From assembly GCA_964452905.1 (NCBI GenBank), contig CAYVNP010000006.1, positions 1,004-65,003 of the forward strand: a stretch of DNA of 64,000 nt. Reading direction: 5' to 3'. The stretch's first letter is position 1; every line of letters begins with the position of its first letter. The notes beneath the pieces were generated by a model, which saw only the letters and a program-made list of their open reading frames with translations, searched no databases and was not told where the DNA came from. The DNA comes from an uncultured Bacteroidales bacterium. Lineage in GTDB: Bacteria > Bacteroidota > Bacteroidia > Bacteroidales > CAYVNP01. Below are positions 20,518 to 38,799 of the stretch, one piece after another. Made by a program: the position numbers and the translations under genes.

Positions 20518-22896
20518 CTAAAATTTATAACTTATTCCAAATTGAAAATTTCTCGGATTGCCTGGAGTGAAACAAATATCATTCACAGGTTGATTTTCTC
20601 CTTTTAATTTTGTTAAAGTTTCAAACTGAGCTTCATTCCAGTTGATATTAAAAATATTTTCACAATAAAATGAGAATAGAATTTTTTTTAACTGATAAGA
20701 AATGTTGGCATTAAAAATGGTATAGCCAGGTGCGGTAAGCGTATAATCCTCATCACCCGGGCGATTGCCAACATGCCTGAATCGAAATGCTCCACTAAAA
20801 CCTTTTTTGGGTAAAACACTTAAACCACCTGAAGCAACAACAACTGGGGCTAAAGGAACATGGTTATGACCTTTTGAGAGATTCTTTATTGTAGCATTTG
20901 CATAAGAAACATCTGCATCAAACCATAACCATGAAAGGAAAGGATAACGAAATTCGGCATCAATACCAAGTCGTTGAGTAGGATTGCTGAGTTCTGTTGT
21001 TCCTCCATCACCTGCATAAACATATTCTTTTTCTAAATATAAATACCAGACTGCAAGATTTACATGCAACTTTTTAAAAAGTTTTGTTTGTAGTCCCAAT
21101 TCCCCTGCTGTTGCTTTGGGTAATGTTGAAACACCATTCATCCCTGAATCAAAATTATACTGCTGAAGTTTAGTATTTATCTGGTTTTCATTCAGACCAT
21201 CTTGTTTCCAGTTAGATGTAAGATTACTGATCGTTTGTCCAATAATTATATCACGAGCATCATTGGAATGGAAGCCCTGACCAAAGTTCAAGTAAACTTC
21301 TATCTTTCGATTTGGTGAAAAAATAAAATTAATTTTCGGACTGAAAACAGATTTACTTGCCGTCCCTGAAGTATGAGGTAAACCGTTATTAGTAGTATCC
21401 AATGCATTACTTACATTATCATTTTTAGAAAATGTAAAATAATCATGACGAAGACCCCAAACAATTTTAAATTTCCGACTTAAAATATATTTCTGTTCTG
21501 CCCAGGCAAATAAATTTCGAATATCCACATCATCATTTGTAAATACATTCATTCGAACACGATTGGGACTATGCCATAATTGAACTGCAATATCATCTCC
21601 CCGATAACCGCAGCTAATTTTATTAAAACTCTTCAATCCAAAAAGATTTGCAGATAATTTATAGGTTGCATTTAATCCGCTGATGGTGCGATGTTCAGTT
21701 TGTTCAATCATATCACCGTGAATACTATCAAAAAGCAAATAGGTAAAATTGGAAAACAATTTAAAATTATAATTTGACATAAAAGCATGTACTTCAAATT
21801 CATTTCCTTCGGTTGAAAGAAAATTGTATGAAAGATTTATATTTTCTCTATTCGTATTACCGCCTTCATTGTGATCTAATGCACCAAACCGACTGATTAA
21901 ACCTTGCTTCACAGCCCGTTCAGGTATTTGTCCGGATGCATTCCATCCTGTGTTAAAACCACTAAAAGAAAAAGTTAGTTTACTATTATGAGTAAGTTGA
22001 AAAAAATATTTCCCAAATACATTCATTCGTTGAAAACCTTCCTGTGTTTTATAAGGACCATCGGTATGAAAATATTGAGCAGCCAAATAACCGTTTTGTT
22101 CCTTTCCTCCTTTATTAGGTTGAAGCAGAAGCGTATATTTCTGCGTATTAAACTGACCTGCTTCTAATTTGAAAAGATTATGATCCAAAACATCTTTTGT
22201 TTTAAATGATACTGCGCCGGCTGTATAAAAATCACCATATTTTGCCAGATAAGGACCTTTATTCACTTCCATCTCATCGACAGTTTCGGCAATGAGAAAA
22301 TGCAGATCTGCATACCCCTGACCATGCGCATGTGTGGGCATATTAACCGGCATCTCATCAACATTCACAGAAACATCGGTGCCATGATCACAATCAAACC
22401 CTCTAAGAAAAATCTGTTCTGCTTTACCTCCTCCCTGATGTTGTGCAATAAACAATCCAGGTACCATCAATAACATATCCTGAGACGAACGGATCGGTTT
22501 TAATTGCATATCAATTGCTCTAATCTCTTTGGATGATGCGGCAGAAAAGGAGTTTGTTGTTTCAATGGTCAGTTCATTCAGGTCAATAACAGATTCTAAC
22601 ATTTTAAAATGTATCGTATCGGTGACATTTTCTTTCACTATAATTGAAACATTCATTGTCTTATAACCAATCTGTGAACAGATTAATTCATAATTACCTA
22701 TTTGAATATTTTTTATTTCATAAATCCCTGAAATATCTGAAACTGTTCTTATTAATGTTCCTTTAATTTGAATAATAGCCCCTATGATTGGTGCACCATC
22801 TTTTACATCTGAAACTCTACCAGTTATTGTCCCTGCATTATGGGCGTAAATAAAGAAAGGAAAAATATAACTAATTAAAAAAAATAAATTTCTCAT
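20518..22896 (-). CDS. TonB-dependent receptor with CarboxypepD_reg N-terminal domain
   Basis: Signal peptide, GTITGRVSD...IIGAIIQIKG regulatory-like domain, plug (FLRGFDCDHGTD), 22-strand-sized barrel, terminal aromatic residue (YKF). Confidence 0.85.
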   Translation of the reverse strand: MRNLFFLISYIFPFFIYAHNAGTITGRVSDVKDGAPIIGAIIQIKGTLIRTVSDISGIYEIKNIQIGNYELICSQIGYKTMNVSIIVKENVTDTIHFKMLESVIDLNELTIETTNSFSAASSKEIRAIDMQLKPIRSSQDMLLMVPGLFIAQHQGGGKAEQIFLRGFDCDHGTDVSVNVDEMPVNMPTHAHGQGYADLHFLIAETVDEMEVNKGPYLAKYGDFYTAGAVSFKTKDVLDHNLFKLEAGQFNTQKYTLLLQPNKGGKEQNGYLAAQYFHTDGPYKTQEGFQRMNVFGKYFFQLTHNSKLTFSFSGFNTGWNASGQIPERAVKQGLISRFGALDHNEGGNTNRENINLSYNFLSTEGNEFEVHAFMSNYNFKLFSNFTYLLFDSIHGDMIEQTEHRTISGLNATYKLSANLFGLKSFNKISCGYRGDDIAVQLWHSPNRVRMNVFTNDDVDIRNLFAWAEQKYILSRKFKIVWGLRHDYFTFSKNDNVSNALDTTNNGLPHTSGTASKSVFSPKINFIFSPNRKIEVYLNFGQGFHSNDARDIIIGQTISNLTSNWKQDGLNENQINTKLQQYNFDSGMNGVSTLPKATAGELGLQTKLFKKLHVNLAVWYLYLEKEYVYAGDGGTTELSNPTQRLGIDAEFRYPFLSWLWFDADVSYANATIKNLSKGHNHVPLAPVVVASGGLSVLPKKGFSGAFRFRHVGNRPGDEDYTLTAPGYTIFNANISYQLKKILFSFYCENIFNINWNEAQFETLTKLKGENQPVNDICFTPGNPRNFQFGISYKF

Positions 22897-22946
22897 ATTG
22901 ATAATATTACGTTTTTTATATTCGTGTTACTTTATGATTAAAAAAA

Positions 22947-23348
22947 TTATTCGATATCAGTCATCACCAATTTACCGTGTTTTATTCCTTTGGTCGCAAT
23001 AATTTTATCTGCCAGTTTAATCAGTTTTTGCGCATTTCCTTTGACAGCAATTGTTTCAAGGCATAGGTCGTGAGCCAAATGAACATGTTGCGTTGAAAGA
23101 ATAAGATCATGAAAATCATGCTGTACATCCATTAATTTACTGTTCAATTCTCTTTTATGGTGATCATAAACAATCACAATAGCGCCGGCAACAATTTTAT
23201 TTTTATCCCATTTTTCTGCAACAAGCGTATTTTTTATCAGAAAACGAATTGCCTGTGAACGATTGGGAAATTGGTTTTTAAGAACCATTTTATCCAAATC
23301 ATTCAAAGCATTTTCCTCAAGGGACACGCCAAATCTTTTTATATTCAA
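22947..23348 (-). CDS. nikR: Nickel-responsive regulator NikR (RHH plus metal-binding domain)
   Basis: The N-terminal ribbon-helix-helix (RFGVSLEENALNDLD...RSQAIRFLI) and QHVHLAHDLCLE align with E. coli LHVHINHDDCLE. H88, H90, C96 and H77 correspond to E. coli H87, H89, C95 and H76. Confidence 0.85.
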   Translation of the reverse strand: MNIKRFGVSLEENALNDLDKMVLKNQFPNRSQAIRFLIKNTLVAEKWDKNKIVAGAIVIVYDHHKRELNSKLMDVQHDFHDLILSTQHVHLAHDLCLETIAVKGNAQKLIKLADKIIATKGIKHGKLVMTDIE

Positions 23349-23411
23349 GGTGTTATCAAATTAAAATTCGTAGCACAAAAATAAAAAAAAACTAATATAA
23401 AACAAATTAGA

Positions 23412-24212
23412 TCAATTAAATTTTATAAAAAATAGATCCCTCCCATTTTCTTTGGCTATTTGCATTGCCGGTTGGTTTTGCATAATAGAGCCACCCCATT
23501 TGTTAAAATCAAATTCATGTGGTGTTTCAAACCAACTGTCAACGTGCATGATGATTTGAATTTCTTTTGTTTCACCTGATTTTATTGTGAAATAAGAGTT
23601 TAGCAATTTGACTGTAAAGTAGTTTTGAACATAACCTATAATTGAATCCGTATTAAAAGTGTTTCCTTTGTAAAGCTGCCCAATACCTAAATGAAAATCA
23701 AAACTTTGAATGTAATTTACTGTGTCTTTCCATTTTCCATTAAGCATCAGGTAATGATACCCACCCCCGAGTATATCAGGCCAGCTCATATTAACTTCAG
23801 GGGGATTGACAAATATGAATGATTTATTTTTTTCTTTAGTAATGCCTAAAACAAATGTGATTGAATCATAAGTACCTGTGGGGATTTTGTCATATACCTG
23901 CCAAGAGAGTGTTGATGGAATATTGCTATCAACATAATATATATCATTCCATTCATTTATCATTTTGATTGTACCATCGGATTTATAAAATGTTACATCT
24001 GAGATAAAATATTTAATCTCTGTAACAAGATAATGATTACCAGCTTGATTAATATATTTCAATGTATCAAATTGAATAGGCTGACCATTTACCTGATGAG
24101 CAAATGAAAAAATAATTCTACCTGTATGATCATTGGTTGTTTCAGGATTTTTATCTTTTTTACAGGATAAAAACAAAAGCAGAATACAAACAAACTGAAA
24201 ATAATGTTTCAT
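23412..24212 (-). CDS. Lipoprotein, possibly MbnP-like periplasmic metal-binding protein
   Basis: Lipobox LFLSC. The pattern IKYFISDVTFYKSDGT...GTYDSITFVLGI...FDFHLG resembles my recollection of the MbnP family. Its start codon directly abuts the stop of the upstream receptor gene. Confidence 0.5.
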   Translation of the reverse strand: MKHYFQFVCILLLFLSCKKDKNPETTNDHTGRIIFSFAHQVNGQPIQFDTLKYINQAGNHYLVTEIKYFISDVTFYKSDGTIKMINEWNDIYYVDSNIPSTLSWQVYDKIPTGTYDSITFVLGITKEKNKSFIFVNPPEVNMSWPDILGGGYHYLMLNGKWKDTVNYIQSFDFHLGIGQLYKGNTFNTDSIIGYVQNYFTVKLLNSYFTIKSGETKEIQIIMHVDSWFETPHEFDFNKWGGSIMQNQPAMQIAKENGRDLFFIKFN

Positions 24213-26318
24213 TTATAAATTTACTTCAACATTAATAAAAAAAACTCTTCCCGGTTCATACAATTTTGTTGTACTTCCAATTATTTTCCTGTTAAGATGT
24301 TCGTAATATGGGTGATTAAGCATATTATCAATACCGACAGAAATAGTTGCAAAGGAATATAATTTATATGATAATGCAACATTCAATAAAGCAAATCCCG
24401 ATGAGCTTGGTTCATAAAATGCATTGGATGTTCTTTTTTGTGGTGCAACAACTCTACATATTAACTTTGGTGTAAATTTATTTTTCAACATCTTATAATA
24501 AATAGACAGAGTTGTTTCAAAAGGAGGTATTTCCGGCAAAGGATCGTTTTTAATTATTTCATCTCCGGTAACATTACCTCCTTGAACTATATATTTTGTT
24601 GTAGATGGGATTGTCGCTTGTGTAAAAGCAGCAATTATTGTTCCACCCCATTTAAATCTTTCGGGCGAAGAATATCCACATTCAAACCCTTGCAGATTAA
24701 CTGCATCAACATTAACAAATTGTTTAACACCCAATGCACCCTGTGTTTTTGGTGTTGCAACTGATGGTGGCAATTTCTGACCCGTAATATAATTGGTAAC
24801 ATACGAATAGAAACCATTTACATAAATTGAGCCGTATTTAGTATTTGCATATTCAATTGTTAAATCCACTTGATGGTTTGCTTCAGGTTTCAGTTGTGGA
24901 TTGCCCAAATAATCATAATTGTCATATCCTACTGCTAAAAATTTAATATATCGTTCAAGCATGTTAGCATTTCTGACACCTCGACCAGCAGCTAATCCAA
25001 CTGTAATGTATTTGGTTATCTTTTTATTTAAACCTATACTGAAATTATTAAACTGAGAAGAATTCTTTTTAAAATATTCAATATCGCTTTTTACTAATTG
25101 AAGCGTATCATCAGATGAAGCAATATTGTGATCAGCTCTAATTGATGCAGTGAAATCTATTGACTTGAATTTAGTTTTATATTCAGCAAAAAGTCCGGTA
25201 TTTTGTATAAAGGCATCATTCCATAAATTTGAAATTTTTGTTGATTTAGTTGTAATACCGCCCATAGTCATTATCATGGTTGTTGTTTTCCCACCATTTT
25301 TTTCAATCTGTTCGTAGTCAGCACCAATATTGAAAATATGCTTGCCAACATTCAAACCTATTTCTGCTCTTCCTCCACTATTTAATGCATCAACAACTGA
25401 AACGGCTTGCATCGTATTATAATTAGACCTTCTACTATTGTCCATTACATGATCTACATCTGAACGGTAAATTTTTAAATCTACAAAATTAATGATCTTT
25501 GATATTTTCTGTCCGTGATAATCAACAGACATGATTTTTGTATCATCACTTTTTTCATCCATAGGCAGAGACGGATAAGATACGTCACGACCATGTGTTT
25601 CATAATAGGAAAATAAAATAGAATGATTTTCTTTTAAGCATATTCCCAAATCACCATTATAGTTATATTTCATGAATGAAGAATTGATGGTATTTTCATT
25701 CCCATCTTTGTAACTGCCGTAGTTTTTATATCCACCGGCAACATTAAAGTAAATATTTTTATTTCCGCCAAAAACCGATACTCGTTCACGTTGACCGTTC
25801 CAGTTAGATTCAAAACCATATAATGCTTTCGTGTGAACTGAAAATTTGTTATAAAATATTGGCTGTTTAGTTACTAGATTAATAACACCTCCCATCGATG
25901 AACCATATTTTAATGAATAGGGACCTTTGATGATTTCTATTTTTTCAATGTCTTCAACTTCTACATGAGATGTAACAGGATCCATGCGGTTAGGGCAACC
26001 GCCTTCAACCTTAACACCATTATTTAAAATCACATTCAACTGGCTATAGCGAAATCCTCTTACCACCGGGTCAATCCCTGCACCTCCTTTACGAACACCT
26101 GAAACATTAGGCGTACTACGAAGTAAATCTCCAATATCGCGAATATTCTTAATACTTAGCAGGCTGTCGCTTATAGTTGCAATGATGTATGGAATGGGCT
26201 TATTTGCTTGTATTAGCACAGTGTTTAATACACGAATCGAATCTCTTTTAATTTGTGCTTCAATAAGTAATTGGGTGCAAAAAAACAATATAAAAAGAAA
26301 TATGTATTGCTTATTCAT
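24213..26318 (-). CDS. TonB-dependent receptor, OprC/NosA-like (copper-type binding site)
   Basis: GGCPNRMDP (C108-x3-M112) and DHVMD (H290-x-M292) reproduce the CxxxM-HxM copper site of P. aeruginosa OprC. The Cys-to-His spacing is nearly identical (182 vs 180 residues). An LPMDE motif is also present. Confidence 0.8.
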   Translation of the reverse strand: MNKQYIFLFILFFCTQLLIEAQIKRDSIRVLNTVLIQANKPIPYIIATISDSLLSIKNIRDIGDLLRSTPNVSGVRKGGAGIDPVVRGFRYSQLNVILNNGVKVEGGCPNRMDPVTSHVEVEDIEKIEIIKGPYSLKYGSSMGGVINLVTKQPIFYNKFSVHTKALYGFESNWNGQRERVSVFGGNKNIYFNVAGGYKNYGSYKDGNENTINSSFMKYNYNGDLGICLKENHSILFSYYETHGRDVSYPSLPMDEKSDDTKIMSVDYHGQKISKIINFVDLKIYRSDVDHVMDNSRRSNYNTMQAVSVVDALNSGGRAEIGLNVGKHIFNIGADYEQIEKNGGKTTTMIMTMGGITTKSTKISNLWNDAFIQNTGLFAEYKTKFKSIDFTASIRADHNIASSDDTLQLVKSDIEYFKKNSSQFNNFSIGLNKKITKYITVGLAAGRGVRNANMLERYIKFLAVGYDNYDYLGNPQLKPEANHQVDLTIEYANTKYGSIYVNGFYSYVTNYITGQKLPPSVATPKTQGALGVKQFVNVDAVNLQGFECGYSSPERFKWGGTIIAAFTQATIPSTTKYIVQGGNVTGDEIIKNDPLPEIPPFETTLSIYYKMLKNKFTPKLICRVVAPQKRTSNAFYEPSSSGFALLNVALSYKLYSFATISVGIDNMLNHPYYEHLNRKIIGSTTKLYEPGRVFFINVEVNL

Positions 26319-26337: not shown

Positions 26338-26357
26338 AACAAATATATCAAAAATCA
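26338..26357 (-). promoter_or_regulatory. Promoter with shared 20-mer (contains the TATATTTG -7 box) upstream of the OprC-like receptor
   Basis: aacaaatatatcaaaaatca is identical to 29815-29834. The reverse complement reads TGATTTTTGATATATTTGTT, and the -7 box ends about 22 nt from the ATG. Confidence 0.5.
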
Positions 26358-32295: not shown

Positions 32296-33003
32296 TTATT
32301 TTTTCTTTTCAATATATTCAATAATTATTTTTTCAACTTCACTCATTCTGAAATCATATTCTTTTCTTAACCACCCAAGTTTTTGTTTATCAGAAATTGT
32401 CTTTGGAATGTTCAGTTTTGTTTTTATGTATTCAGACGGAACAAAATATTTTTTCGACACATCTTCAAGAGTCATATACCCTTTTACTTCAATCGAATTA
32501 GAATGATTGTGTGTTTCTAAGGAATGATCTTTATCAGTGTGGCTATTTTTTATTGGAGAGATAACTTTTTTTTCGCTTATAGGATTGTTAGTGTGGTATT
32601 TTACTTGTCGTCCCTTTCCTTGTTCAATTTCAACTACTTCAGGGTTAATTATAAATGAAATAAAAATTAAAAAAACAGAAATAATAATGAATAATGATGC
32701 TATTATTTTTCGTGCCATTTTCCTTTGTATTAGTTTATTATATATACAAATTATAACATTCCAATGTAAAATAATATGAAGCACTAATAACCCAAGTAAT
32801 ATAAATCCAATTACGAGATGAATAGTCCCCCATTCATGTCTATCCATTCCCCAAAAATAAAGATCAACATTTTTCTCATACTTAATCCATCTTTCTTGTC
32901 CTGGAATCAATGTGAATTTTATTAAAAAACCTATCCCGGCAATAGCTGACATACATAAAAACATTAATCCATTTATTATGAAATTCAGAAGTGATTGATT
33001 CAT
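32296..33003 (-). CDS. DUF4405-like cytochrome-b-type membrane protein with a soluble C-terminal domain
   Basis: Four TM helices with conserved His (RHEWGTIHLVIGFILLGLLVLHIILHWN), followed by a roughly 90-aa soluble tail. Confidence 0.65.
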   Translation of the reverse strand: MNQSLLNFIINGLMFLCMSAIAGIGFLIKFTLIPGQERWIKYEKNVDLYFWGMDRHEWGTIHLVIGFILLGLLVLHIILHWNVIICIYNKLIQRKMARKIIASLFIIISVFLIFISFIINPEVVEIEQGKGRQVKYHTNNPISEKKVISPIKNSHTDKDHSLETHNHSNSIEVKGYMTLEDVSKKYFVPSEYIKTKLNIPKTISDKQKLGWLRKEYDFRMSEVEKIIIEYIEKKK

Positions 33004-33076: not shown

Positions 33077-33586
33077 TTAATGATAAGGATCGGAAAAATC
33101 CATTGCATAATAAACAGTATTACTTTGCAAAGCAAGGATAGAATTATGATTGAATTCTCTATCTTTAACCACAAGAGTAGTGACAGGTGCTTTAGACGTT
33201 TTATTAAATAAAATGTCATGCCCCATACATAAACCTAATGTGATATTGAGTTCAGTTTTGCTTTGTGACAGTTCATGTGCCTGACCGACCGGATTACAAG
33301 TCAGTCCTTTTGCTTCATAACCAAGAATCTCTTTTGAAGGAACCCTCCCTATTTTACAGTTTGAAGTAAAAACATCAAATTCATCAGATAATAGTTCTTT
33401 CAATTTATCAGCTTCTTTTTGGAGTGCAACACAATTTGCAATACCTATACGCTTATATCCAGATAGGCGAGCGAATTTTTTTATTTCTTCCACTCGGTTT
33501 TTACCTACAATACGGGCATCCTCTGCTATCTGCATGATTTTTTTATCTTCGTCAGTATATAATTCTTGAATATTGTTATTTTCCAT
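33077..33586 (-). CDS. DUF1847-like putative metal-binding protein
   Basis: IGIANCVAL...CKIG...CNPVGQA...LGLCMGHDILF...TTLVVKD pattern with four spaced Cys. Confidence 0.6.
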   Translation of the reverse strand: MENNNIQELYTDEDKKIMQIAEDARIVGKNRVEEIKKFARLSGYKRIGIANCVALQKEADKLKELLSDEFDVFTSNCKIGRVPSKEILGYEAKGLTCNPVGQAHELSQSKTELNITLGLCMGHDILFNKTSKAPVTTLVVKDREFNHNSILALQSNTVYYAMDFSDPYH

Positions 33587-33596
33587 GTTATGTTCG

Positions 33597-34037
33597 TTAA
33601 TGAAAGCTCGTTTGTAATTCAGATACTTTAATTGTATTAAATGTATGAAGGATATTAATTATGTTTTCTGGCGGATGACAAGGTTGTCGACTTCCTTTAT
33701 GTATAAAAGCAACAACGATTTTAGCTTCATTAATCAGTTCACCTGCTGCATTAAACATTTTATATGAAAAAAAAATTCGAGCACCTTTGATATTATTCAA
33801 AGTAGTTTCAATGGTGAGCAAATCATCATAAAACGCAGGTTTAATAAATCGAAATGTCATATCTGTTACAGGAAGCAAATAGTTGTCTTTTTCAATAGAC
33901 TTATATGAGATACCTACCTTGCGTAATAATTCCCATCGGGCGGTTTCATAATACCTAACATAATTGGAATGATGCATAAAACCCATCTGATCGGTATCAG
34001 AATACTTAACCCGTTGTTTTGTTAAATTTGTGTACAT
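33597..34037 (-). CDS. Acyl-CoA thioesterase, YbgC/4HBT hotdog family
   Basis: YSDTDQMGFMHHSNYVRYYETARWELLR, a typical 4HBT N-terminus with catalytic Asp. Confidence 0.8.
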   Translation of the reverse strand: MYTNLTKQRVKYSDTDQMGFMHHSNYVRYYETARWELLRKVGISYKSIEKDNYLLPVTDMTFRFIKPAFYDDLLTIETTLNNIKGARIFFSYKMFNAAGELINEAKIVVAFIHKGSRQPCHPPENIINILHTFNTIKVSELQTSFH

Positions 34038-34043: not shown

Positions 34044-34409
34044 TTAATGATTATGACAGTCAGCTTGTCCTTCATGTCCGCCACATCCGATACCACTGTC
34101 TGTTAATGTACCATTTAAAAATGATTCGGCAACTTCTTTTGGATGTCCGCTACATCCACGAATTACATTAATACCGTGCTGATTTAAAACATTTAAAGCA
34201 CCCATACCCATATTACCGGCAAGCATTACTTCTACGCCTGTTCTTTGTAAAACCCCAGCTATATTTGACTTACAACCACATCCTTCAGGTGATTTGATCG
34301 TTTCTTCATAAATAATTTCTTTTTCGTCAACAGTAAATACAGTATATGATTCGCAATGACCGAAATGATCATCAATTCTGTTTTCTCTTGTTGGAACTGC
34401 AATTTTCAT
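34044..34409 (-). CDS. NifB/NifX-family (dinitrogenase Fe-Mo cofactor biosynthesis domain) protein
   Basis: MKIAVPT...DDHFGHCESYTVF... plus a Cys/His-rich C-terminus (GCGGHEGQADCHNH). Confidence 0.8.
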   Translation of the reverse strand: MKIAVPTRENRIDDHFGHCESYTVFTVDEKEIIYEETIKSPEGCGCKSNIAGVLQRTGVEVMLAGNMGMGALNVLNQHGINVIRGCSGHPKEVAESFLNGTLTDSGIGCGGHEGQADCHNH

Positions 34410-34431: not shown

Positions 34432-35265
34432 TTAGTTATTTTTATTGATTTCTGACATGTAATATATTTGATTTAGTGATTGAGCTAATAAACTAAAAGC
34501 ATTCTTCCCTGTACAATGCCCGGTAAAGAAAGAAGCATCGGGAAGTAACAGTTTCAATTCTTGTCCTATAAATAATAACTCATCATCTTTTTCAGTTTCT
34601 ATAAATTCATTTTTATCTATCAAATGAAATCCGCCAATAACCTTGATAATCCTTTCGTTTGGGAAAAAATTCTTAACTGTAGATACTACATTCAAAATGC
34701 CAAGGTGTGAACAACCGCTGAAGATGGTTAAGCCATCCATTGATTTTACTAAAAATATTAATTCATGTAAAAAAACATCATTCACAAAATTATTATCCTG
34801 TTCTTTCAATAACAGTTTATTTCCTAATGGCAGCGGATATTGCCTATCAATCCTGATAATGAATAATAGATTATCTGAAATAAAACAATCATTCTGAATA
34901 AATACAAAGCGTTTATCATATTTTAACAATTCATTAGAATATCCAATGTGCTTCATAGCTCCGTTTCTAATGGAAAAATATTGACTGGCGAATATTTCAT
35001 TTTTAAGAAATACTTTTGCTTTTATATTGTATTGTAGAAAAGGTATTAAACCACCAATATGATCAGAATGTCCATGAGATATAACAACGGTATCAATATC
35101 CTTCAAATCAACATTCAACTTTTCGGCATTATGCATGAATAAATCTGAAGCACCTGTATCAAAAAGAATTTTATGCGCTACAGTTTCAATATAAAGTGAT
35201 AACCCATGTTCGCTTTTCAGTGTATCTGAAACTAAATTATTTTCTATTAGTGGTATGATTTTCAC
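34432..35265 (-). CDS. MBL-fold metallo-hydrolase, COG1237 type
   Basis: SEHGLSLYIET...ILFDTGAS...VISHGHSDHIGGL (HxHxDH motif), 277 aa. Confidence 0.8.
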   Translation of the reverse strand: MKIIPLIENNLVSDTLKSEHGLSLYIETVAHKILFDTGASDLFMHNAEKLNVDLKDIDTVVISHGHSDHIGGLIPFLQYNIKAKVFLKNEIFASQYFSIRNGAMKHIGYSNELLKYDKRFVFIQNDCFISDNLLFIIRIDRQYPLPLGNKLLLKEQDNNFVNDVFLHELIFLVKSMDGLTIFSGCSHLGILNVVSTVKNFFPNERIIKVIGGFHLIDKNEFIETEKDDELLFIGQELKLLLPDASFFTGHCTGKNAFSLLAQSLNQIYYMSEINKNN

Positions 35266-35291: not shown

Positions 35292-35615
35292 TTAACTTTT
35301 AGCACGCATTAATACAATATAATCTTTCAATGTCTTTTCTGTATCAACAACTATGATTATTTGAATTTTTAATTCTTTTAACAGTATTTTAACTTTCTCG
35401 CCTATTTCACTTGAAATGATACGTTCAACTTGTTTCTCTTGAAGCAGCTTAACCGCTGCGCATCCCGCATATTCTTTTATTTCCCTATATGAATTTTCAA
35501 TAAATTCATATTCACCTGTATGGGTATCATAAATCATAAAATAAGCACACCGGCCAAAGTGTTTATCAATTCTGGAATTAAGCGAATTATTTTCTGCTGC
35601 AAATGCTACTTTCAT
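35292..35615 (-). CDS. NifB/NifX-family protein (second copy)
   Basis: MKVAFAAEN...IDKHFGRCAYFMIYD, 107 aa. Confidence 0.75.
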   Translation of the reverse strand: MKVAFAAENNSLNSRIDKHFGRCAYFMIYDTHTGEYEFIENSYREIKEYAGCAAVKLLQEKQVERIISSEIGEKVKILLKELKIQIIIVVDTEKTLKDYIVLMRAKS

Positions 35616-35617: not shown

Positions 35618-36043
35618 TTAATCGTTTTGACTGATTAATTCTTTATAATTTTCAATTGTTTTTGAGCCACACATTGGACAAGAGATTTTTTTGGTTTGAT
35701 TTAAAGGATTATTGAAGTTGCTATTGCATTTTTTACATCTGAACCATTCTTCATCAAAATAAACTTGCCCTCCTTCAATTTCAATTACTTTAGCTTCAGC
35801 AAAAGCTTTTGCAATCTTGCGTCTGTAACTCTCATAAATTCTAGTAAATGTAGGTCTGGAAACATTCATATAAATTGCCGCTTCTGCTTGTGTATGCAAT
35901 TCATAATCACATAACCGCATAGCTTCAAATTCTTCAAAATTCAGAGTAACGGATTCTTTACTTTTTCCAAAATATCCAAAAGGTCTGTATCCCTTAAATG
36001 GTGGAGGATTGAGCATTTTTCTTAATCTTTTTGGACGCGACAT
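35618..36043 (-). CDS. DUF134-family putative DNA-binding protein with C-terminal zinc ribbon
   Basis: Start placed at MSRPKRLRK... (36041-36043), typical of DUF134. HTH-like region LHTQAEAAIYMNVSRPTF and a C-terminal CKKC...CPMC. Confidence 0.75.
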   Translation of the reverse strand: MSRPKRLRKMLNPPPFKGYRPFGYFGKSKESVTLNFEEFEAMRLCDYELHTQAEAAIYMNVSRPTFTRIYESYRRKIAKAFAEAKVIEIEGGQVYFDEEWFRCKKCNSNFNNPLNQTKKISCPMCGSKTIENYKELISQND

Positions 36044-36065: not shown

Positions 36066-36087
36066 ATAATGAACATTTGTTCATTAT
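36066..36087. promoter_or_regulatory. Perfect 10-bp inverted repeat (candidate operator) in the divergent promoter region
   Basis: ATAATGAACA-tt-TGTTCATTAT, 23-44 nt upstream of the DUF134 start and about 55 nt upstream of the opposite -7 box. Confidence 0.5.
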
Positions 36088-36142: not shown

Positions 36143-36150
36143 TAAATTTG
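36143..36150 (+). promoter_or_regulatory. Candidate -7 box (TAAATTTG) for the class V PLP enzyme gene
   Basis: TAnnTTTG match that overlaps the TTG start used by the ORF track, which argues for the ATG at 36196. Confidence 0.4.
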
Positions 36151-36195
36151 GAGAAGTATTTTAAAAAATTTCGTAAAAAAATCATTGGTGATGAA

Positions 36196-37605
36196 ATGGA
36201 ATATATTACCCAATATGGTACTCAAAAAATGCTATATCTTGATTGGATTGCAAGCGGTAGACTTTATCGACCAATTGAAAAAGCTATTAGTGAACTGTTT
36301 GGTCCTTTTGTTGCCAATACCCATACCCAAACAAGTGAAAGTGGAACTCGTATGACATTGAGTTATCAACAAGCTCATAGAATTATTAAAAAACATGTTC
36401 ACGCAGGAAATAATGATATTATCATAACGTCTGGTTTTGGAATGACTTCTGTGGTGAATAAACTACAACGAATTTTAGGGCTAAAAAAATATAAAACTAC
36501 AAACACAAATTTTACTGAAAACAAACGACCTGTTGTTTTTTTAACACATATGGAACATCACTCAAATCAAACCAGTTGGTATGAGTCAATAGCTGATGTT
36601 GTAATTTTAAAACCAAATGCAGACCTTTTAGTTGATACACAGGAACTATATCTACAGCTTGAAAAATATAAGAGTCGAAATATTAAGATAGGTGCATTTA
36701 CTGCATGCTCAAATGTTACCGGAATAATTACGCCATATCACGAAATGGCACGAATAATGCACGAACACGGAGGCGTTTGTTTTGTTGATTTTGCAGCATC
36801 TGCTCCTTATGTTGATATAAATATGCATCCTGCAAAGGAAAATGAAAAATTAGATGCAATATTTTTCTCGCCACATAAGTTTTTGGGTGGACCTGGTTCA
36901 TCTGGGGTTTTAATTTTTGATTCGAGTCTATATAGCAATGAAGCACCAGATGATTCAGGAGGTGGCACATTAGACTGGACCAATCCATGGGGAAAATATA
37001 AATACATAGATAATATTGAAGCACGAGAGGATGGAGGTACACCAGGTTTTATACAAGCTATTCGGACTGCTTTGGCAATAAAGCTAAAAGAAAAAATGGG
37101 TGTAGCAAGAATAAAAGCTCGCGAAGACGAATTACTTTCAATTGCTTTTAACGAATTGGATAAGATTGAAGGACTTCAGGTATTAGCAAACCAACACCGA
37201 GAGAGACTTGGAATTATTTCATTTTATCATCCAAATATACATTATAATCTTATTGCAAAATTATTAAGTGATCGTTTTGGTATTCAGGTTCGTGCTGGCT
37301 GTGCATGTGCCGGAACATATGGACATTATTTATTAGAAGTGAATTATGAAAAATCGCAAGAAATTACTAAAAAAATAAATTATGGCGATTTATCACAAAA
37401 ACCGGGATGGGTAAGAGTATCCTTACATCCAACATTATCCAATAAAGAAGTATTATTTTTTGTGAATGCGCTTCGTGAGATAACTAAAAATCATTCTATT
37501 TGGATGAAAGATTATTTTTATAATAAAAAGAATAATGAATTTCAAAACAAATATGAATCAAAAAAAAGATTAAACGTTATTAAGAATTGGTTTATGATTG
37601 ATTAA
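36196..37605 (+). CDS. Aminotransferase class V / cysteine-desulfurase-like PLP enzyme
   Basis: PLP-lysine motif FSPHKFLGGPG and Cys loop VRAGCACAGTYGHY. The start is moved from 36148 (TTG) to the first ATG (MEYITQYG). Confidence 0.8.
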   Translation: MEYITQYGTQKMLYLDWIASGRLYRPIEKAISELFGPFVANTHTQTSESGTRMTLSYQQAHRIIKKHVHAGNNDIIITSGFGMTSVVNKLQRILGLKKYKTTNTNFTENKRPVVFLTHMEHHSNQTSWYESIADVVILKPNADLLVDTQELYLQLEKYKSRNIKIGAFTACSNVTGIITPYHEMARIMHEHGGVCFVDFAASAPYVDINMHPAKENEKLDAIFFSPHKFLGGPGSSGVLIFDSSLYSNEAPDDSGGGTLDWTNPWGKYKYIDNIEAREDGGTPGFIQAIRTALAIKLKEKMGVARIKAREDELLSIAFNELDKIEGLQVLANQHRERLGIISFYHPNIHYNLIAKLLSDRFGIQVRAGCACAGTYGHYLLEVNYEKSQEITKKINYGDLSQKPGWVRVSLHPTLSNKEVLFFVNALREITKNHSIWMKDYFYNKKNNEFQNKYESKKRLNVIKNWFMID

Positions 37606-37663: not shown

Positions 37664-38284
37664 ATGCCAAAAGAATATTTTGATCGGGAAGCTGCAACAT
37701 GGGATAACATACCTCAGCGGTTGAATTTAGCTAAGACTGTTGCGGAAGAAATTATTAATTCTGTTCCTTTATTAAGAATTTGGACTGCTCTTGACTATGG
37801 ATGTGGTACAGGATCACTGAGCTTTTTCTTAAAGTCAAGTCTTAATTCCATTACTTTGGCAGATGAATCAAAGGGAATGCTTGATGTTTTGGAAAATAAA
37901 ATCAAAGCACATAACGTAATAAATCTTCATCCTATTAAATTGAATTTACTGGAAGAAAAATATACTGCCAAACATGATCTGATTTATACATTAATGGCTT
38001 TGCATCATATTAAAGATGTACATGGAATCATCGCAAAGTTCTATTCAATATTAAACAAAGATGGTTATCTGTGTATTGGAGATTTGGTTGAAGAAGATGG
38101 ATCTTTTCATGCACATCATACAAATTATGACGGACACAATGGGTTTAATTTAAATTCTTTAAAAGACATATTGCAAAAATCCGGATTTAAAGAGATCAAA
38201 ACTAAAATTTGTTTTGAAATGGAAAAAGAAATAAATCTGAAAACCTGTAAATATCCTGTTTTTCTTATGACTGCCAAAAAATAA
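37664..38284 (+). CDS. Class I SAM-dependent methyltransferase
   Basis: YFDREAATWD N-terminus and motif I LDYGCGTGSL, 206 aa. Confidence 0.8.
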   Translation: MPKEYFDREAATWDNIPQRLNLAKTVAEEIINSVPLLRIWTALDYGCGTGSLSFFLKSSLNSITLADESKGMLDVLENKIKAHNVINLHPIKLNLLEEKYTAKHDLIYTLMALHHIKDVHGIIAKFYSILNKDGYLCIGDLVEEDGSFHAHHTNYDGHNGFNLNSLKDILQKSGFKEIKTKICFEMEKEINLKTCKYPVFLMTAKK

Positions 38285-38332
38285 TTTCAACTAATAATAA
38301 CCGTTATTAAGTTCAATAAATTAGTTACTAAA

Positions 38333-38428
38333 ATGAAAAGTCTGATTAAAAAGAAGAAAAATTGCTGTACAGCATCAGCACAATGTTGTGCAAAGATTTC
38401 AAAGAATATTGCAGGTTGTCATGATTAA
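38333..38428 (+). CDS. Cys-rich micro-ORF (31 aa), hypothetical
   Basis: MKSLIKKKKNCCTASAQCCAKISKNIAGCHD* is below the ORF-track cut-off. It has an ATG start and fills the otherwise empty methyltransferase-trxA spacer on the same strand. Confidence 0.35.
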   Translation: MKSLIKKKKNCCTASAQCCAKISKNIAGCHD

Positions 38429-38499
38429 TATAATCAAATAATTAGAATCTTTCTATTATTTAAGTTTAACATTAATCAAAAACAATATCCCATTTTAAA

Positions 38500-38799
38500 A
38501 TGAAAGGTCAATTTGAAAAAATTATCAATTCATCACCTTTAGTGCTTGTTGACTTCTTTGCCGAATGGTGTGGACCATGCAAAATACAGGCACCTATATT
38601 AAAAGAATGGACGTCGGAAGTTGGTGAACGTGTAAAAATCATTAAAATAAATGTTGATACAAATAATGAGATTGCTACTCGTTATCAGGTTCAAAGTATT
38701 CCGACATTAATATTGTTTCATCATGGACAAGTTGTTATTAAACACTCAGGTGTTATGTCAAAACAGCAACTTAACGATATGATTAAACAATTTAAATAA
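38500..38799 (+). CDS. trxA: Thioredoxin
   Basis: WCGPC active site, 99 aa. Confidence 0.9.
   Translation: MKGQFEKIINSSPLVLVDFFAEWCGPCKIQAPILKEWTSEVGERVKIIKINVDTNNEIATRYQVQSIPTLILFHHGQVVIKHSGVMSKQQLNDMIKQFK

Follow-up and report, generated by a model that had tools for sequence, protein, structure and literature searches.

Does a long co-directional run of genes for outer-membrane metal receptors, Hdr-like redox proteins and NifX-type carriers form one metal-responsive system, or a set of separately controlled modules? The run lies in a 64-kb stretch of DNA (hereafter the window) from an uncultured anaerobic Bacteroidales bacterium, and the initial annotation had read it as a single array. 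The ORF list of the window contains an unbroken minus-strand series of 18 ORFs that begins at 36076/36043 and ends at 20518, and plus-strand ORFs at 36148–37605, 37664–38284 and 38500–38799—with all 18 genes, a gene fragment and the divergent arm falling where that annotation had placed them. Taken in order from the DUF134 side of the run to the TBDR1 side (TBDR1 being the last of the TonB-dependent receptor, or TBDR, genes), the intergenic spacers measure 2, 26, 22, 6, 10, 73, 93, −4, 45, 172, 17, 49, 32, 83, 0, 63 and 50 nt, the 172-nt spacer being measured to the likely DsrE start at 29772.

Family assignment relied on Pfam and NCBIfam profiles, with bit scores compared to model cutoffs, and every earlier family call was upheld: three TBDRs, NikR, MbnP (PF20243), Fer4 and, weakly, DsrE at the receptor end; FlpD/MvhD, a CCG/HdrB-like protein, an HdrC-like protein, DUF4405, DUF1847, a YbgC-type thioesterase, two Nitro_FeMo-Co (NifX-like) proteins, a metallo-beta-lactamase-fold protein (MBL) and DUF134 with a zinc ribbon at the redox end; and Aminotran_5, a methyltransferase and thioredoxin on the plus strand. 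As had also been pointed out, no HdrA, hydrogenase, TonB/ExbBD or inner-membrane metal importer was found in the 64-kb window. The lack of an importer there to connect the receptors with the cytoplasm counts against the explanation proposed below. Co-directionality alone is weak evidence of grouping, because about 46 of the 57 window genes lie on the minus strand; beyond the 18 genes, the run takes in ArgRS and two more genes, and a same-strand run of 18 has a probability of ~0.02 per starting gene. It is the comparative data, and not the strand run, that show a more-than-chance grouping. The full explanation that we favor, and to which we give somewhat better than even chances, is that the region is a modular locus for metal acquisition and metal–sulfur cluster handling, with at least four transcription units.

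Promoter-like −7 boxes, the 172-nt spacer and the operator positions indicate that the array is not one pathway operon and would comprise at least the following four units:

36043 to 29945, minus strand: unit A, which runs from DUF134 to MvhD and is grouped with the divergent SufS-like arm
Unit B: DsrE-like lipoprotein, HC101, TBDR3 and ferredoxin
Unit C: OprC-type copper receptor (intact CxxxM-HxM site) and MbnP-like protein
Unit D: nikR–TBDR1, with two NikR boxes
29815 to 29834, minus strand: 20-mer TGATTTTTGATATATTTGTT, which includes a −7 box of the Bacteroidetes type (TATATTTG) and gives unit B a promoter-like start
26338 to 26357, minus strand: second copy of the 20-mer with its −7 box, promoter-like start of unit C

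The minus-strand −7 boxes at 36061, 29817, 26340 and 23376 are all located in spacers; such boxes are not enriched overall (115 found versus 103 expected), and the unit boundaries rest on these short motifs. The two copies of the 20-mer are identical (chance expectation, 0.18), and the unit B 20-mer is not present in the close relative L082. Terminator-like sites occur at chance frequency. Units B, C and D would act as outer-membrane uptake modules, each with its own promoter.

Unit A begins with a candidate regulator and a candidate operator:

36066 to 36087, unstranded: perfect palindrome (10+2+10), ATAATGAACA-AA-TGTTCATTAT (whole, ATGAACAnnTGTTCAT), proposed operator of the DUF134 regulator
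35618 to 36043, minus strand: DUF134 (UPF0251) protein of the HTH type, CxxC…CxxC domain at its C-terminus (PF02001, 72.8 bits), first gene of unit A

The palindrome, with its core TGAACAnnTGTTCA at 36070–36083, sits within the 104-nt divergent spacer, where it abuts the DUF134 promoter's −7 box (TATCTTTG, 36068–36061), and occurs, in its exact form, at this single site in the window. Across our main comparison set of 81 HdrB-anchored, related Bacteroidales loci (1.34 Mb), the exact palindrome was found 25 times versus 0.1 expected from shuffles—nearly all copies being intergenic—and composition-matched control palindromes occurred at most twice. It is located 4–44 nt upstream of 23 of the 36 DUF134 genes, in many cases as two tandem copies separated by 26 nt, and is kept in the close relative L082/L083. 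Since palindromes head DUF134–NifXb–NifXa–(DUF89–rSAM)–HdrC–HdrB–(CGGC–MinD-Fer4×2–Mrp) operons, they define a conserved regulon; further copies precede separate MBL, DUF5320, DUF4405, Met-γ-lyase–Prx and TsaA genes in related loci. Of the four DUF134 cysteines, three are present in every relative (36/36) and one in 25/36. Another regulator could bind the palindrome, for example a Crp/Fnr protein such as those encoded near the locus in L082 and eight other loci; the operator of the large redox operon most likely serves its own DUF134 regulator. Unit A shares it with the divergent arm, SufS-like–methyltransferase(–thioredoxin), and it overlaps the core promoter of the DUF134 gene. The DUF134 protein would be an autoregulating sensor, probably of a metal, of redox state or of Fe–S status. 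NikR, in turn, appears to control its own unit only, and NikR boxes occur solely at nikR–TBDR1; with a different operator at the redox operon, the idea of a single 18-gene array under Ni/Cu control does not hold.

Downstream of the regulator, unit A encodes putative cluster carriers and three further proteins:

35292 to 35615, minus strand: NifX-like protein b, single-domain (Nitro_FeMo-Co/Di-Nase; PF02579, 67 bits)
34432 to 35265, minus strand: COG1237-type metallo-beta-lactamase-fold protein (PF00753)
34044 to 34409, minus strand: NifX-like protein a, HFGHCE motif, tail rich in Cys and His (PF02579, 75 bits)
33597 to 34037, minus strand: YbgC/FadM-type acyl-CoA thioesterase (TIGR00051, 98 bits versus a cutoff of 68.7)
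33077 to 33586, minus strand: DUF1847 protein with four Cys (PF08901, 128 bits)

NifX-like b adjoins DUF134 in 27 related loci, and NifX-like a, whose HFGHCE motif has been described (PMC6345978), has a match to the Di-Nase domain at the C-terminus of MrpORP (NF041136, 77.8 bits, below the 450-bit cutoff). Members of the NifX family bind Mo–Cu–S, [3Fe-4S] or thioferrate (PMC6345978, PMC5524996); the small NifX/Di-Nase proteins encoded here would hold Fe–S or heterometal–sulfur clusters. The MBL, with two uncharacterised proteins (2p4z and TM1679) as its closest solved structures, is present in 20 related loci, several of which have their own palindrome upstream of it; the thioesterase occurs in 11 related loci and DUF1847, which has no relative among solved structures, in four.

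The conserved DUF134–NifX–HdrC–HdrB regulon resembles the Desulfovibrio orange-protein (ORP) cluster, the genes of which are under Fe–S-based redox control (PMC8359166). The hallmark ORP ATPases, MinD-Fer4 and Mrp, are not in the window but are present in the regulon of the relatives; hence, the analogy rests mainly on the latter. Additional regulon genes in relatives encode MinD-Fer4 (×2), Mrp, DUF89, radical SAM, CGGC, DUF5320, CoA-disulfide reductase and peroxiredoxin proteins, and unit A is a local reduced and rearranged variant of this larger regulon conserved across anaerobic Bacteroidales. Many members in relatives—peroxiredoxin, CoA-disulfide reductase, OsmC, a ferritin-like protein and thioredoxin—look like components of thiol or oxidative-stress defence, which could be the role of the regulon rather than cluster assembly. 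We infer that, biochemically, the system handles clusters of the Fe–S or heterometal–S kind, supplied by imported thiophilic metals.

The redox core of unit A consists of the following elements:

32296 to 33003, minus strand: DUF4405 membrane protein, three predicted TM helices, His in TM2 (PF14358, 49.7 bits; weak Ni_hydr_CYTB match)
31501 to 32202, minus strand: HdrC-like protein with two CxxCxxCxxxCP [4Fe-4S] motifs (NF041779, 112 bits, below cutoff)
30434 to 31504, minus strand: HdrB-like CCG-domain protein, C-terminal CCG intact, N-terminal CCG degenerate
29945 to 30388, minus strand: MvhD/FlpD-type [2Fe-2S] electron-transfer protein (PF02662, 164.7 bits), last gene of unit A
29835 to 29939, minus strand: pseudogene fragment of 34 aa left from a duplication of the HdrB C-terminus, at a rearrangement junction

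The HdrC-like gene, with motif cysteines at 21/24/27/31 and 68/71/74/78, overlaps hdrB by 4 nt, and the two form an invariant pair found together in 71–78 of the 81 related loci. Over its full length, the HdrB-like protein aligns with HdrB structures from methanogens (9sfi_C, 8e-28; 5odc_B). Residues C181, C221, C222, C261 and C264 are invariant in 76 relatives, and only C28, C62 and C100 are so in the N-terminal half. The degenerate N-terminal CCG counts against the proposed explanation. The gene fragment noted earlier is real and corresponds to the HdrB remnant, which shares 61% identity over 33 aa with the 3′ end of L082 hdrB (tblastx); MvhD directly follows HdrB only in close relatives (L001, L082–84 and L089). 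DUF4405 directly precedes HdrC in L031 and L042 too, and heme b binding by a DUF4405 protein has been shown experimentally (PMC11334425). In other relatives, HdrA-like or QmoC-like modules occupy its place. The initial annotation had singled out the unit as puzzling for being HdrA-less; the absence stands for the window, yet the puzzle does not, since the adjacent heme-b DUF4405 and HdrCB give a layout resembling HdrED/DsrMK. This membrane protein probably replaces the missing HdrA. HdrC–HdrB would carry out reductive S–S or persulfide chemistry at a CCG-type cluster, with electrons from the membrane heme-b DUF4405 and/or MvhD instead of HdrA.

The divergent arm would supply and recycle sulfur through its SufS-like enzyme and thioredoxin:

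36196 to 37605, plus strand: SufS-like PLP enzyme of class V, 469 aa when read from the likely ATG (ORF opens at 36148; PF00266, 155.8 bits)
37664 to 38284, plus strand: SAM-dependent methyltransferase (TehB/BioC-like, from profile matches)
38333 to 38428, plus strand: putative 31-codon Cys-rich micro-ORF (MKSLIKKKKNCCTASAQCCAKISKNIAGCHD), outside the L082-aligned stretch
38500 to 38799, plus strand: thioredoxin (WCGPC; PF00085, 96 bits)

The SufS-like enzyme, first gene of the arm, carries SPHK and RAGCAC motifs (TIGR01979, 145.6 bits, below cutoff), and its divergent arrangement is kept in L082/L083. Homologues of the methyltransferase occur in 12 related loci.

Unit B pairs a receptor with an unannotated protein family:

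29353 to 29772, minus strand: exported DsrE-like lipoprotein, signal peptide …YAQ|C, CGTC motif (PF02635, weak: 26 bits versus a cutoff of 22.7)
29030 to 29335, minus strand: HC101, a 101-aa His/Cys-rich protein, membrane-anchored or exported
26722 to 28980, minus strand: TBDR3, likely start 28962, nearest solved relative the ZnuD plug
26402 to 26689, minus strand: 12-Cys ferredoxin, 2×[4Fe-4S] motifs and an extra Cys cluster, no signal peptide

HC101 has no Pfam or NCBIfam match; its homologues fall into 109 clusters, all annotated as ‘hypothetical’, with HHH, one Cys and a C-terminal LRAPP as invariants. A TBDR is always next after HC101, an obligate partner of TBDR3, and TBDR3 orthologues (53–78% identity) follow it in L004, L008, L017, L031, L048 and many metagenome loci. 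The ferredoxin also follows TBDR modules in L075 and L082. HC101 (HHH…C) and its obligate receptor would form an uptake module for an unspecified metal.

Units C and D contain the copper receptor and the NikR genes and sites:

24213 to 26318, minus strand: OprC/NosA-type copper TBDR (best PDB match OprC 6fok, 3e-36)
23412 to 24212, minus strand: MbnP-like lipoprotein, abutting the copper receptor gene (PF20243, 86 bits)
23350 to 23376, minus strand: NikR box 1, GTGCTAC-N13-ATAACAC, which stops 1 nt short of the TTG start of nikR
22947 to 23348, minus strand: NikR nickel-responsive repressor, RHH domain and NikR_C, HVH…C ligand pattern (NF003381, 152 bits versus a cutoff of 105; PF08753, 111.6 bits)
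22904 to 22930, minus strand: NikR box 2, GTAACAC-N13-GTAATAT, in the nikR–TBDR1 spacer
20518 to 22896, minus strand: TBDR1, the gene after nikR, proposed to encode a receptor for nickel (or a Ni chelate) under Ni repression

The copper receptor keeps the four Cu ligands C108, M112, H290 and M292, its CPNRM and HVM motifs aligning to C143/M147 and H323/M325 of OprC, in which the CxxxM-HxM copper site was defined (PMC8610252); the TIGR01778 score is 252 bits, below the cutoff of 472. The receptor–MbnP pair is kept in L075 and L082 (TIGR04052 gives just 24 bits for the MbnP-like protein), and the two would constitute a copper uptake module. NikR box 1, downstream of the −7 box at 23383–23376, is the only match in 64 kb to GTGTTAC-N13-GTAACAC with at most two mismatches, and its position is also occupied in L004, L010, L014 and L020. 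Box 2 is the only window match to a degenerate bipartite motif, with equivalents 14–28 nt upstream of the TBDR after nikR in L004, L010, L011, L014 and L020. Ni–NikR would repress nikR–TBDR1 through both boxes. Thus, the copper and nickel arms suggested initially are borne out by the conserved OprC ligands and by NikR with its conserved boxes, respectively.

The remaining question is whether the sub-modules belong together, and neighbourhood conservation, the test put forward in the initial annotation, shows that they are not a chance juxtaposition. In ~30 of the 81 loci, HdrB has DUF134 and the two NifX genes no more than 10 kb away, usually in the same operon, and HC101–TBDR3, NikR–TBDR and OprC-like TBDR–MbnP–Fer4 recur in or beside that operon in several independent orders. 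HC101–TBDR is found between HdrC and HdrB in L008 and L017 (HdrC–HC101–TBDR–HdrB); in L004 it follows Mrp–NikR–TBDR, and in L031 and L048 it precedes DUF134; NikR–TBDR closes the operon in L010, L011, L014 and L020; and a DUF134 paralogue heads TBDR703–MbnP–Fer4 in L075. The close relative L082 keeps all modules in a different order. In the reverse, HC101-anchored test, 8–10 of 16 distinct informative contexts carry regulon genes, e.g., DUF134–NifXb–NifXa–HC101–TBDR3 (L144) and HdrC–HdrB–HC101 (L165). Some adjacency is expected by chance, because TBDRs are abundant in Bacteroidota; HC101–TBDR3 also stands alone in L086–L088, L105, L161 and L167, and TBDR1 lacks orthologues across the 81 HdrB-anchored loci, another TBDR, 613 aa long, taking its position there. 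Optional as they are, the receptor modules recur inside the regulon in independent arrangements. Since they have been repeatedly recruited into it elsewhere, imported thiophilic metals would probably be substrates or cofactors of the cytoplasmic machinery.

In this uncultured anaerobe, outer-membrane receptors for nickel, copper and an unspecified metal would lie beside a conserved, self-regulated operon for metal–sulfur cluster carriers and an enzyme like heterodisulfide reductase (Hdr). The recurrence of this receptor–redox linkage in other lineages offers a testable clue to how anaerobes of sulfide zones may take up and handle thiophilic metals.

The ORF map confirmed 18 consecutive minus-strand genes running from 36043 down to 20518, together with a divergent plus-strand arm at 36148-37605, 37664-38284 and 38500-38799, and Pfam and NCBIfam upheld every family name assigned in the initial annotation. 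The array encodes three TonB-dependent receptors (TBDR1 to TBDR3), NikR, an MbnP-domain lipoprotein, a 12-Cys ferredoxin, a weakly DsrE-like exported protein, MvhD/FlpD, HdrB-like and HdrC-like proteins, DUF4405, DUF1847, a YbgC-type thioesterase, two NifX-like proteins (PF02579; NifXa and NifXb), a COG1237-type MBL-fold protein and a DUF134 protein with a zinc-ribbon-like tail, whereas the divergent arm encodes a SufS-like class-V PLP enzyme, a methyltransferase and a thioredoxin. The reported absence of HdrA, hydrogenase, TonB/ExbBD and an inner-membrane metal importer also held across the 64-kb window. The array is flanked by housekeeping or unrelated genes, with ArgRS at one end and genes for a MatE exporter and T9SS cargo at the other. 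Co-directionality by itself is weak evidence for a system, the minus strand carrying about 46 of the window's 57 genes.

Several genes merit separate mention. The SufS-like enzyme, which has SPHK and RAGCAC motifs and scores 145.6 bits against TIGR01979 (cutoff 475), is best described as a class-V PLP enzyme and candidate cysteine desulfurase; DUF1847 had no match in the PDB. Between the methyltransferase and thioredoxin genes lies a putative Cys-rich micro-ORF of 31 codons (38333-38428, plus strand; MKSLIKKKKNCCTASAQCCAKISKNIAGCHD), outside the stretch that can be aligned with the closely related locus L082. Just downstream of ArgRS, on the array strand, lie two overlapping genes (16879-18584, minus strand), one for a DUF6873 protein and one for a radical-SAM protein that includes a Radical_SAM_C domain. 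Several large proteins encoded at 40333-43119 and 54273-59201 (minus strand) bear T9SS C-terminal sorting domains (with PKD repeats and Reg_prop), which confirm a Bacteroidota host.

The proposal that the 18 genes form a single operon was not borne out. Minus-strand −7 boxes of the Bacteroidetes type (TAnnTTTG) are located in the spacers upstream of four array genes, with promoter-like elements occupying the 172-, 83- and 63-nt spacers. These boxes, and a gene remnant discussed below, are as follows:

36068-36061, minus strand: −7 box of DUF134, from the TAnnTTTG scan
29824-29817, minus strand: −7 box of the DsrE-like gene, inside the 172-nt spacer
26347-26340, minus strand: −7 box of the copper receptor gene (TBDR2), from the TAnnTTTG scan
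23383-23376, minus strand: −7 box of nikR, from the TAnnTTTG scan
29835-29939, minus strand: HdrB remnant ORF (…MKYTYDIKKKYQRLNGKELGKPENTR), in the MvhD–DsrE spacer

Because the −7 motif is not enriched overall in the window, we infer the unit boundaries rather than read them directly; on this basis the array would comprise several transcription units, namely unit A (DUF134 to MvhD), unit B (the DsrE-like protein, the 101-aa His/Cys-rich protein HC101, TBDR3 and the ferredoxin), unit C (TBDR2 and the MbnP-like lipoprotein) and unit D (nikR–TBDR1). A σ70 promoter scan was uninformative (120 matches against 110 expected), a σ70-type promoter being the wrong type for Bacteroidota, and a terminator scan performed at chance level, with its matches falling within genes. 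The Rfam search of the array region returned neither a riboswitch nor any other RNA element; a tRNA gene at 13789-13859 (minus strand) is the sole Rfam match in the window. Between the HC101 and TBDR3 genes, a hairpin-like stretch is shared with the close relative only.

The gene fragment described in the initial annotation is real: its 34 aa are what is left of a duplicated HdrB C-terminus, and it marks a past rearrangement junction. Identical 20-mers (TGATTTTTGATATATTTGTT) occur at 26338-26357 and 29815-29834 (minus strand), upstream of the copper receptor gene and the DsrE-like gene, each containing the −7 box. As a conserved shared operator this element was rejected, since it is not present in L082 or L083, the close relatives of the window locus; the pair is probably a duplicated promoter at the junctions of swapped or rearranged blocks. 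Compared with L082, to which the window shows 83-92% nucleotide identity, the HC101–TBDR3–ferredoxin and copper TBDR–MbnP blocks have exchanged their order, and the two loci differ by the gain or loss of several genes—the modules, therefore, shuffle among close relatives yet remain together. Just past the SufS-like arm, L082 and L083 (positions 1-2375) carry a sulfur-relay cluster of DsrE2, TusA, MvhD and an HdrA-like protein of 914 aa, together with a Crp-family regulator; where this cluster lies in the relatives, the window carries thioredoxin and MatE.

NikR scores above its curated cutoff (NF003381, 152.3 bits against 105; PF08753, 111.6 bits) and has the HVH…C pattern. Taking GTGTTAC-N13/14-GTAACAC as the presumed NikR consensus, known from comparative genomics, we located two predicted boxes:

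23350-23376, minus strand: NikR box 1 (predicted), GTGCTAC-N13-ATAACAC, ending just before the nikR start
22904-22930, minus strand: NikR box 2 (predicted), GTAACAC-N13-GTAATAT, before TBDR1

Box 1 is the sole match to GTGTTAC-N13-GTAACAC with at most two mismatches in the 64 kb, and the motif recurs at the two equivalent positions in four related loci (L004, L010, L014 and L020) and ahead of the TBDR in L011. The exact GTTAC…GTAAC palindrome gave no matches, mismatches being needed to detect the boxes, and the E. coli-type box GTATGA-N16-TCATAC was discarded, as it matched no more often than by chance and never in the spacers of interest. Because no such motif lies elsewhere in the window, including upstream of units A, B and C, NikR probably controls the nikR–TBDR1 unit only, the proposed nickel arm of the locus. 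The initial annotation had envisaged one Ni/Cu-responsive 18-gene system, with NikR or a copper signal governing everything from the DUF134 promoter to TBDR1. The short spacers, the lack of convincing terminators in the scan, the position of nikR inside the array and the NikR–TBDR pairs that tail long DUF134 operons in L014 and L020 all speak for such control; however, with NikR boxes confined to nikR–TBDR1, promoter-like elements in three spacers and a conserved operator belonging to unit A itself, we regard it as very unlikely. As in the FrpB4/FecA3–NikR systems of Helicobacter pylori, NikR is encoded together with, or linked to, a TonB-dependent receptor, and box-like repeats overlap the nikR and receptor promoter regions. 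The half-site GTAAYAC (N13-14) nevertheless differs from the NikR boxes of both H. pylori and E. coli and, unlike in H. pylori, nikR and the receptor gene share one unit—in several Bacteroidales, the tail of a DUF134/Hdr operon.

The operator of unit A has the following position:

36066-36087, unstranded: perfect palindrome ATAATGAACA-AA-TGTTCATTAT, in the 104-nt divergent spacer, abutting the −7 box of DUF134

For comparison, 80 genome loci from Rikenellaceae, Prolixibacteraceae, Alistipes, Lentimicrobiaceae and others were retrieved, anchored on HdrB-like relatives of 62-80% identity, and the addition of L001, a short contig identical to the window, gave a scan set of 81 loci. The core TGAACAnnTGTTCA has 25 exact copies in 19 of these loci, against 0.1 expected from shuffles and at most two copies for composition-matched control palindromes. 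With one mismatch allowed, 60 sites were found, including the one in the window, and 47 of the 60 are intergenic. They lie upstream of DUF134–NifXb–NifXa–(DUF89–radical SAM–Def)–HdrC–HdrB–(CGGC–MinD-Fer4×2–Mrp…) operons and of separate genes for MBL, DUF5320, DUF4405, Met-γ-lyase–peroxiredoxin and TsaA. A palindrome sits 4-44 nt upstream of 23 of 36 DUF134 genes, frequently as two sites 26 nt apart. The C-terminal domain of DUF134 bears four Cys residues, three of them invariant and the fourth present in 25 of the 36 relatives. The simplest reading of these patterns is that DUF134 acts as an autoregulating Cys4 sensor-regulator of the palindrome regulon; a Crp/Fnr-type protein would be the alternative binder. 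Our literature search retrieved no paper on DUF134/UPF0251/COG1342 regulators or on the palindrome motif, and nothing relevant on this gene combination in Bacteroidetes. Two elements are new: the ATGAACAnnTGTTCAT operator, together with the DUF134 Cys4 protein as its proposed regulator, and the family of HC101 partner proteins. Some related loci also encode Gly/Arg-rich DUF5320 proteins of 77-131 aa with their own palindrome copy upstream (e.g., L014 at 18448, L025 at 14613 and L036 at 5106).

Unit A can be placed next to the ORP cluster of Desulfovibrio vulgaris (orp3-4-5/orpR/orp7-8-9, DVU2103-2109). Among NifX-family proteins, Orp8 binds a Mo–Cu–S cluster, MrpORP a [3Fe-4S] cluster and IssA thioferrate (PMC6345978, PMC5524996), and the ORP genes respond to redox potential through a switch by an Fe–S redox sensor (PMC8359166). 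Both systems are anaerobe-specific, consist of divergent operons around a common regulatory region, include small NifX/Di-Nase proteins (in ORP, Orp8 and the C-terminal domain of MrpORP) and rely on a regulator of their own that senses through Cys residues, which in the window is a proposed one. The window encodes two single-domain NifX/Di-Nase proteins of the Orp8 type (PF02579, 75 and 67 bits), of which NifXa matches the MrpORP Di-Nase domain and bears an HFGHCE motif. The operons of the relatives contain further ORP hallmarks: NifX/Di-Nase proteins are accompanied by two MinD-type ATPases with ferredoxin inserts, comparable to Orp3/Orp4, and by Mrp/NBP35, comparable to the N-terminal half of MrpORP (PMC6345978, PMC8359166). 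MinD-Fer4 genes occur in 23 related loci, mostly paired, and a separate Mrp/ApbC gene in 28. In the 64-kb window, by contrast, Mrp/NBP35 was not found, and tblastn with the relatives' MinD-Fer4 proteins detected no homologous gene, the sole match being the Fe–S motifs of the small ferredoxin (31% over 103 aa, E=5e-4). Nor was a σ54 enhancer-binding protein gene of the OrpR type found; the regulator gene is that of the DUF134 HTH protein and the operator a 14-bp palindrome.

Unit A also lacks DUF89, radical SAM, CGGC, CoA-disulfide reductase and peroxiredoxin genes, and a search of the rest of the window for the missing ORP, Hdr and stress genes found none. It retains DUF134, both NifX genes, MBL, the thioesterase and HdrCB, with DUF1847, DUF4405 and MvhD as additions, and from its gene content it is classed as a reduced variant of the relatives' ORP-like operon. 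HdrCB, DUF4405, MvhD, MBL, DUF1847, the thioesterase and the TonB-dependent receptors fall outside the described ORP cluster. The NifX/IPR003731 domain is likewise common to the window's NifX-like proteins and the thioferrate storage protein IssA of Pyrococcus furiosus, and the stand-alone cationic Gly/Arg-rich DUF5320 of the relatives' regulon recalls the cationic Gly-rich thioferrate-binding tail of IssA (PMC5524996). The window differs from that system in encoding no DUF5320 protein and in the Cys/His rather than cationic tail of NifXa.

The pairing of HdrC with HdrB is invariant (71-78 of the 81 loci). In the HdrABC–MvhAGD heterodisulfide reductase, HdrB has two CCG motifs for two non-cubane [4Fe-4S] clusters. 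The HdrB-like protein aligns end to end with solved HdrB structures; its C-terminal CCG motif is complete and invariant among relatives, and the N-terminal one is degenerate (C28, C62 and C100 remain, with CTG replacing CCG). HdrC-like carries two [4Fe-4S] motifs (CxxCxxCxxxCP) and its gene overlaps hdrB by 4 nt. Both proteins score below the cutoffs of the respective NCBIfam models. The C-terminus of HdrB-like proteins, that of the window included, often ends in Cys-Cys or Cys-x (…LKCC; 31 and 24 of 76, not invariant), which hints at a thiol-bearing tail.

No homologue of the HdrA flavoprotein, and no hydrogenase genes for an MvhAG [NiFe] partner of MvhD, were found in the window. A DUF4405 gene (three TM helices, with a His in TM2) is located 93 nt upstream of hdrC, and this family comprises experimentally shown heme-b membrane cytochromes (PMC11334425). 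With a gene of this family directly preceding hdrC, the layout resembles HdrED/DsrMK and would account for the missing HdrA, heme binding being predicted. In the place of DUF4405, the relatives have an HdrA-like protein (348 aa, after HdrB in 32 loci), a QmoC-like or an HdrED-like module. HdrED of Methanosarcina and DsrMK of sulfate reducers share with the window a b-type cytochrome gene beside genes for 2×[4Fe-4S] and CCG proteins; the window differs in that the cytochrome is a three-helix DUF4405 protein rather than HdrE or DsrM, HdrC and HdrB are separate proteins with a degenerate N-terminal CCG, and MvhD follows in the absence of hydrogenase or HdrA. A CofH/MqnC-type radical SAM enzyme of the futalosine route is encoded at 50639-51751 (plus strand) and suggests that the organism makes menaquinone, consistent with a quinol-linked DUF4405–HdrCB module. 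In L059-L081 (Alistipes and others), which lack DUF134 and NifX, HdrC and HdrB belong to another conserved operon, together with the 348-aa HdrA-like protein, a 111-aa ferredoxin and a 602-aa membrane HdrED-like protein.

Turning to the receptors, the best structural-sequence match of TBDR2 is OprC, whose CxxxM-HxM copper site (PMC8610252) is kept, with C108/M112/H290/M292 aligning to C143/M147/H323/M325. TBDR2 is nevertheless a distant relative of OprC, with 128.5 bits overall in the PDB search, and its TIGR01778 score of 252 bits falls under the equivalog cutoff of 472. All four copper ligands are thus common to TBDR2 and OprC/NosA of Pseudomonas, whereas the host is an anaerobic Bacteroidales and the partners are an MbnP-like lipoprotein and a cytoplasmic ferredoxin in place of a PepSY/FoxB-like reductase. 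The abutting lipoprotein gene encodes an MbnP domain (PF20243, 86.3 bits against a cutoff of 27) that reaches just 23.9 bits against TIGR04052 (cutoff 140), and no MbnH di-heme peroxidase was found in the array region or L082. The nearest solved relative of TBDR3 is the ZnuD plug, and a metal-ligand search left H352 and H722 as the sole invariant candidates. HC101 had no family match, including Pfam at a lenient threshold; its relatives form about 109 clusters, none of them annotated, in which HHH, one Cys and a C-terminal LRAPP (FLLRAPP) are invariant, and it always precedes a TBDR of ~743 aa. A second HC101 clade (DGLFHHH) is partnered with a distant receptor and has no linkage to the Hdr/NifX regulon.

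Import of corrinoids or cobalt by these receptors, with the cytoplasmic genes remodelling or loading them, would fit the BtuR/CobO-type adenosyltransferase found inside the operon of L011, L017, L023 and L029, the weak CpaM-like match of the divergent-arm methyltransferase (38.5 bits against a cutoff of 180) and the weak BtuB plug similarity of the TBDRs. The BtuB matches are, however, restricted to the generic plug domain, TBDR2 has copper ligands, BtuR is absent from the window and neither a cobalamin riboswitch nor any other Rfam element occurs in the array region. We regard a corrinoid system as very unlikely.

The linkage between receptors and regulon is real, though optional: the modules recur with the regulon in differing gene orders. 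HC101–TBDR lies between hdrC and hdrB (L008 and L017), after Mrp–NikR–TBDR (L004) or immediately ahead of DUF134 (L031 and L048); NikR–TBDR closes a long operon in L010, L011, L014 and L020, and in L075 a DUF134 paralogue heads TBDR703–MbnP–Fer4. In the reverse test, based on 80 metagenome loci anchored on HC101, orthologous HC101–TBDR3 pairs occurred in 16 contexts that were distinct and informative. Of these, 8-10 included regulon genes—e.g., L144 (DUF134–NifXb–NifXa–HC101–TBDR3) and L165 (HdrC–HdrB–HC101)—and some pairs were not linked to the regulon. By our own rough estimate, a random single-copy gene would fall within 10 kb in 1-2% of cases.

These counts bear on whether islands for the uptake of nickel, copper and another metal came by chance to lie beside a redox operon with which they have nothing to do, the region being prone to rearrangement and the strand gene-rich. 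TBDRs are numerous in Bacteroidota, and the strand bias, the rearrangement scars (HdrB fragment, duplicated 20-mer and block swap relative to L082), the solitary HC101–TBDR3 pairs and the lack of a linked TBDR1 orthologue among the HdrB-anchored loci all speak for such a juxtaposition. It leaves unexplained, however, at least five gene orders of modules with the regulon across Rikenellaceae, Prolixibacteraceae and other Bacteroidales—some inside the operon—and the regulon genes in about half of the informative HC101–TBDR3 contexts against that rough 1-2%; chance is therefore unlikely. We conclude that the locus is a real, conserved but modular system, combining known kinds of components: an ORP-like carrier operon, an HdrED-like reductase, a NikR–TBDR pair and an OprC-type TBDR.

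As to what this system does, DUF134 would bind the palindrome and sense redox state, Fe–S status or metal; HdrCB, with electrons from DUF4405 and/or MvhD, would perform reductive S–S or persulfide chemistry; the NifX-like proteins may carry Fe–S or heterometal–S clusters; and imported copper, nickel and a third metal could supply the cytoplasmic machinery. The main rival is a defence regulon against thiol, persulfide or redox stress. In this reading DUF134 would respond to oxidants or sulfide stress, HdrCB would act with DUF4405 and MvhD to return low-molecular-weight disulfide or persulfide to the reduced state, and damaged Fe–S clusters would be mended by the NifX-like proteins, the SufS-like enzyme and thioredoxin; the receptors would adjoin solely because repair needs metal. 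Operator-linked genes of the relatives encode peroxiredoxin, CoA-disulfide reductase, Met-γ-lyase, OsmC-like and ferritin-like proteins, as well as thioredoxin, TusA, DsrE and rhodanese proteins; thioredoxin and the SufS-like enzyme occupy the divergent arm of the window, and redox responsiveness is documented for the Desulfovibrio ORP genes (PMC8359166). Yet the window's own operon has neither peroxiredoxin nor CoA-disulfide reductase, and a defence role offers no reason for the insertion of HC101–TBDR between hdrC and hdrB, or for its place right after DUF134–NifX–NifX. We consider it the less likely account; it overlaps with the metal-supplied carrier system that we favor, and the two are not mutually exclusive.

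A bolder version of the favored reading, which we put forward as speculative and rather unlikely in its full form, is that anaerobic Bacteroidales of sulfidic habitats run a dedicated assimilation of thiophilic metals as metal–sulfur species, along a complete route from TBDR through HdrCB to NifX under DUF134. TonB-dependent receptors and the HHH…C…LRAPP partner would import such species (Cu/Ni sulfide clusters, thiometallates or aqueous FeS), HdrCB fed by DUF4405 from the membrane would process the sulfur reductively, NifX-type carriers would pass finished clusters to client enzymes, and the Cys4 DUF134 sensor at the ATGAACAnnTGTTCAT operator would govern the whole route. If true, this would give the long-enigmatic ORP system a physiological role.

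The findings bear on two questions: what the ORP/NifX-like/DUF134 neighbourhood, widespread in anaerobes, does, and how copper, nickel and other metals that sulfide precipitates reach strict anaerobes. The locus and its relatives supply a concrete regulon whose operator is defined and for which a regulator can be proposed, together with a recurring link in the genome from this regulon to outer-membrane metal receptors, the HC101 partner family and an explanation for HdrA-less HdrCB modules. Both questions thereby become directly testable in cultivable relatives such as Rikenella, Alistipes, Mangrovibacterium and Bacteroidales bacterium CF. Should the link prove functional, it would tie the import of metals to sulfur redox chemistry and to the hand-off of cofactors in gut and sediment Bacteroidales.
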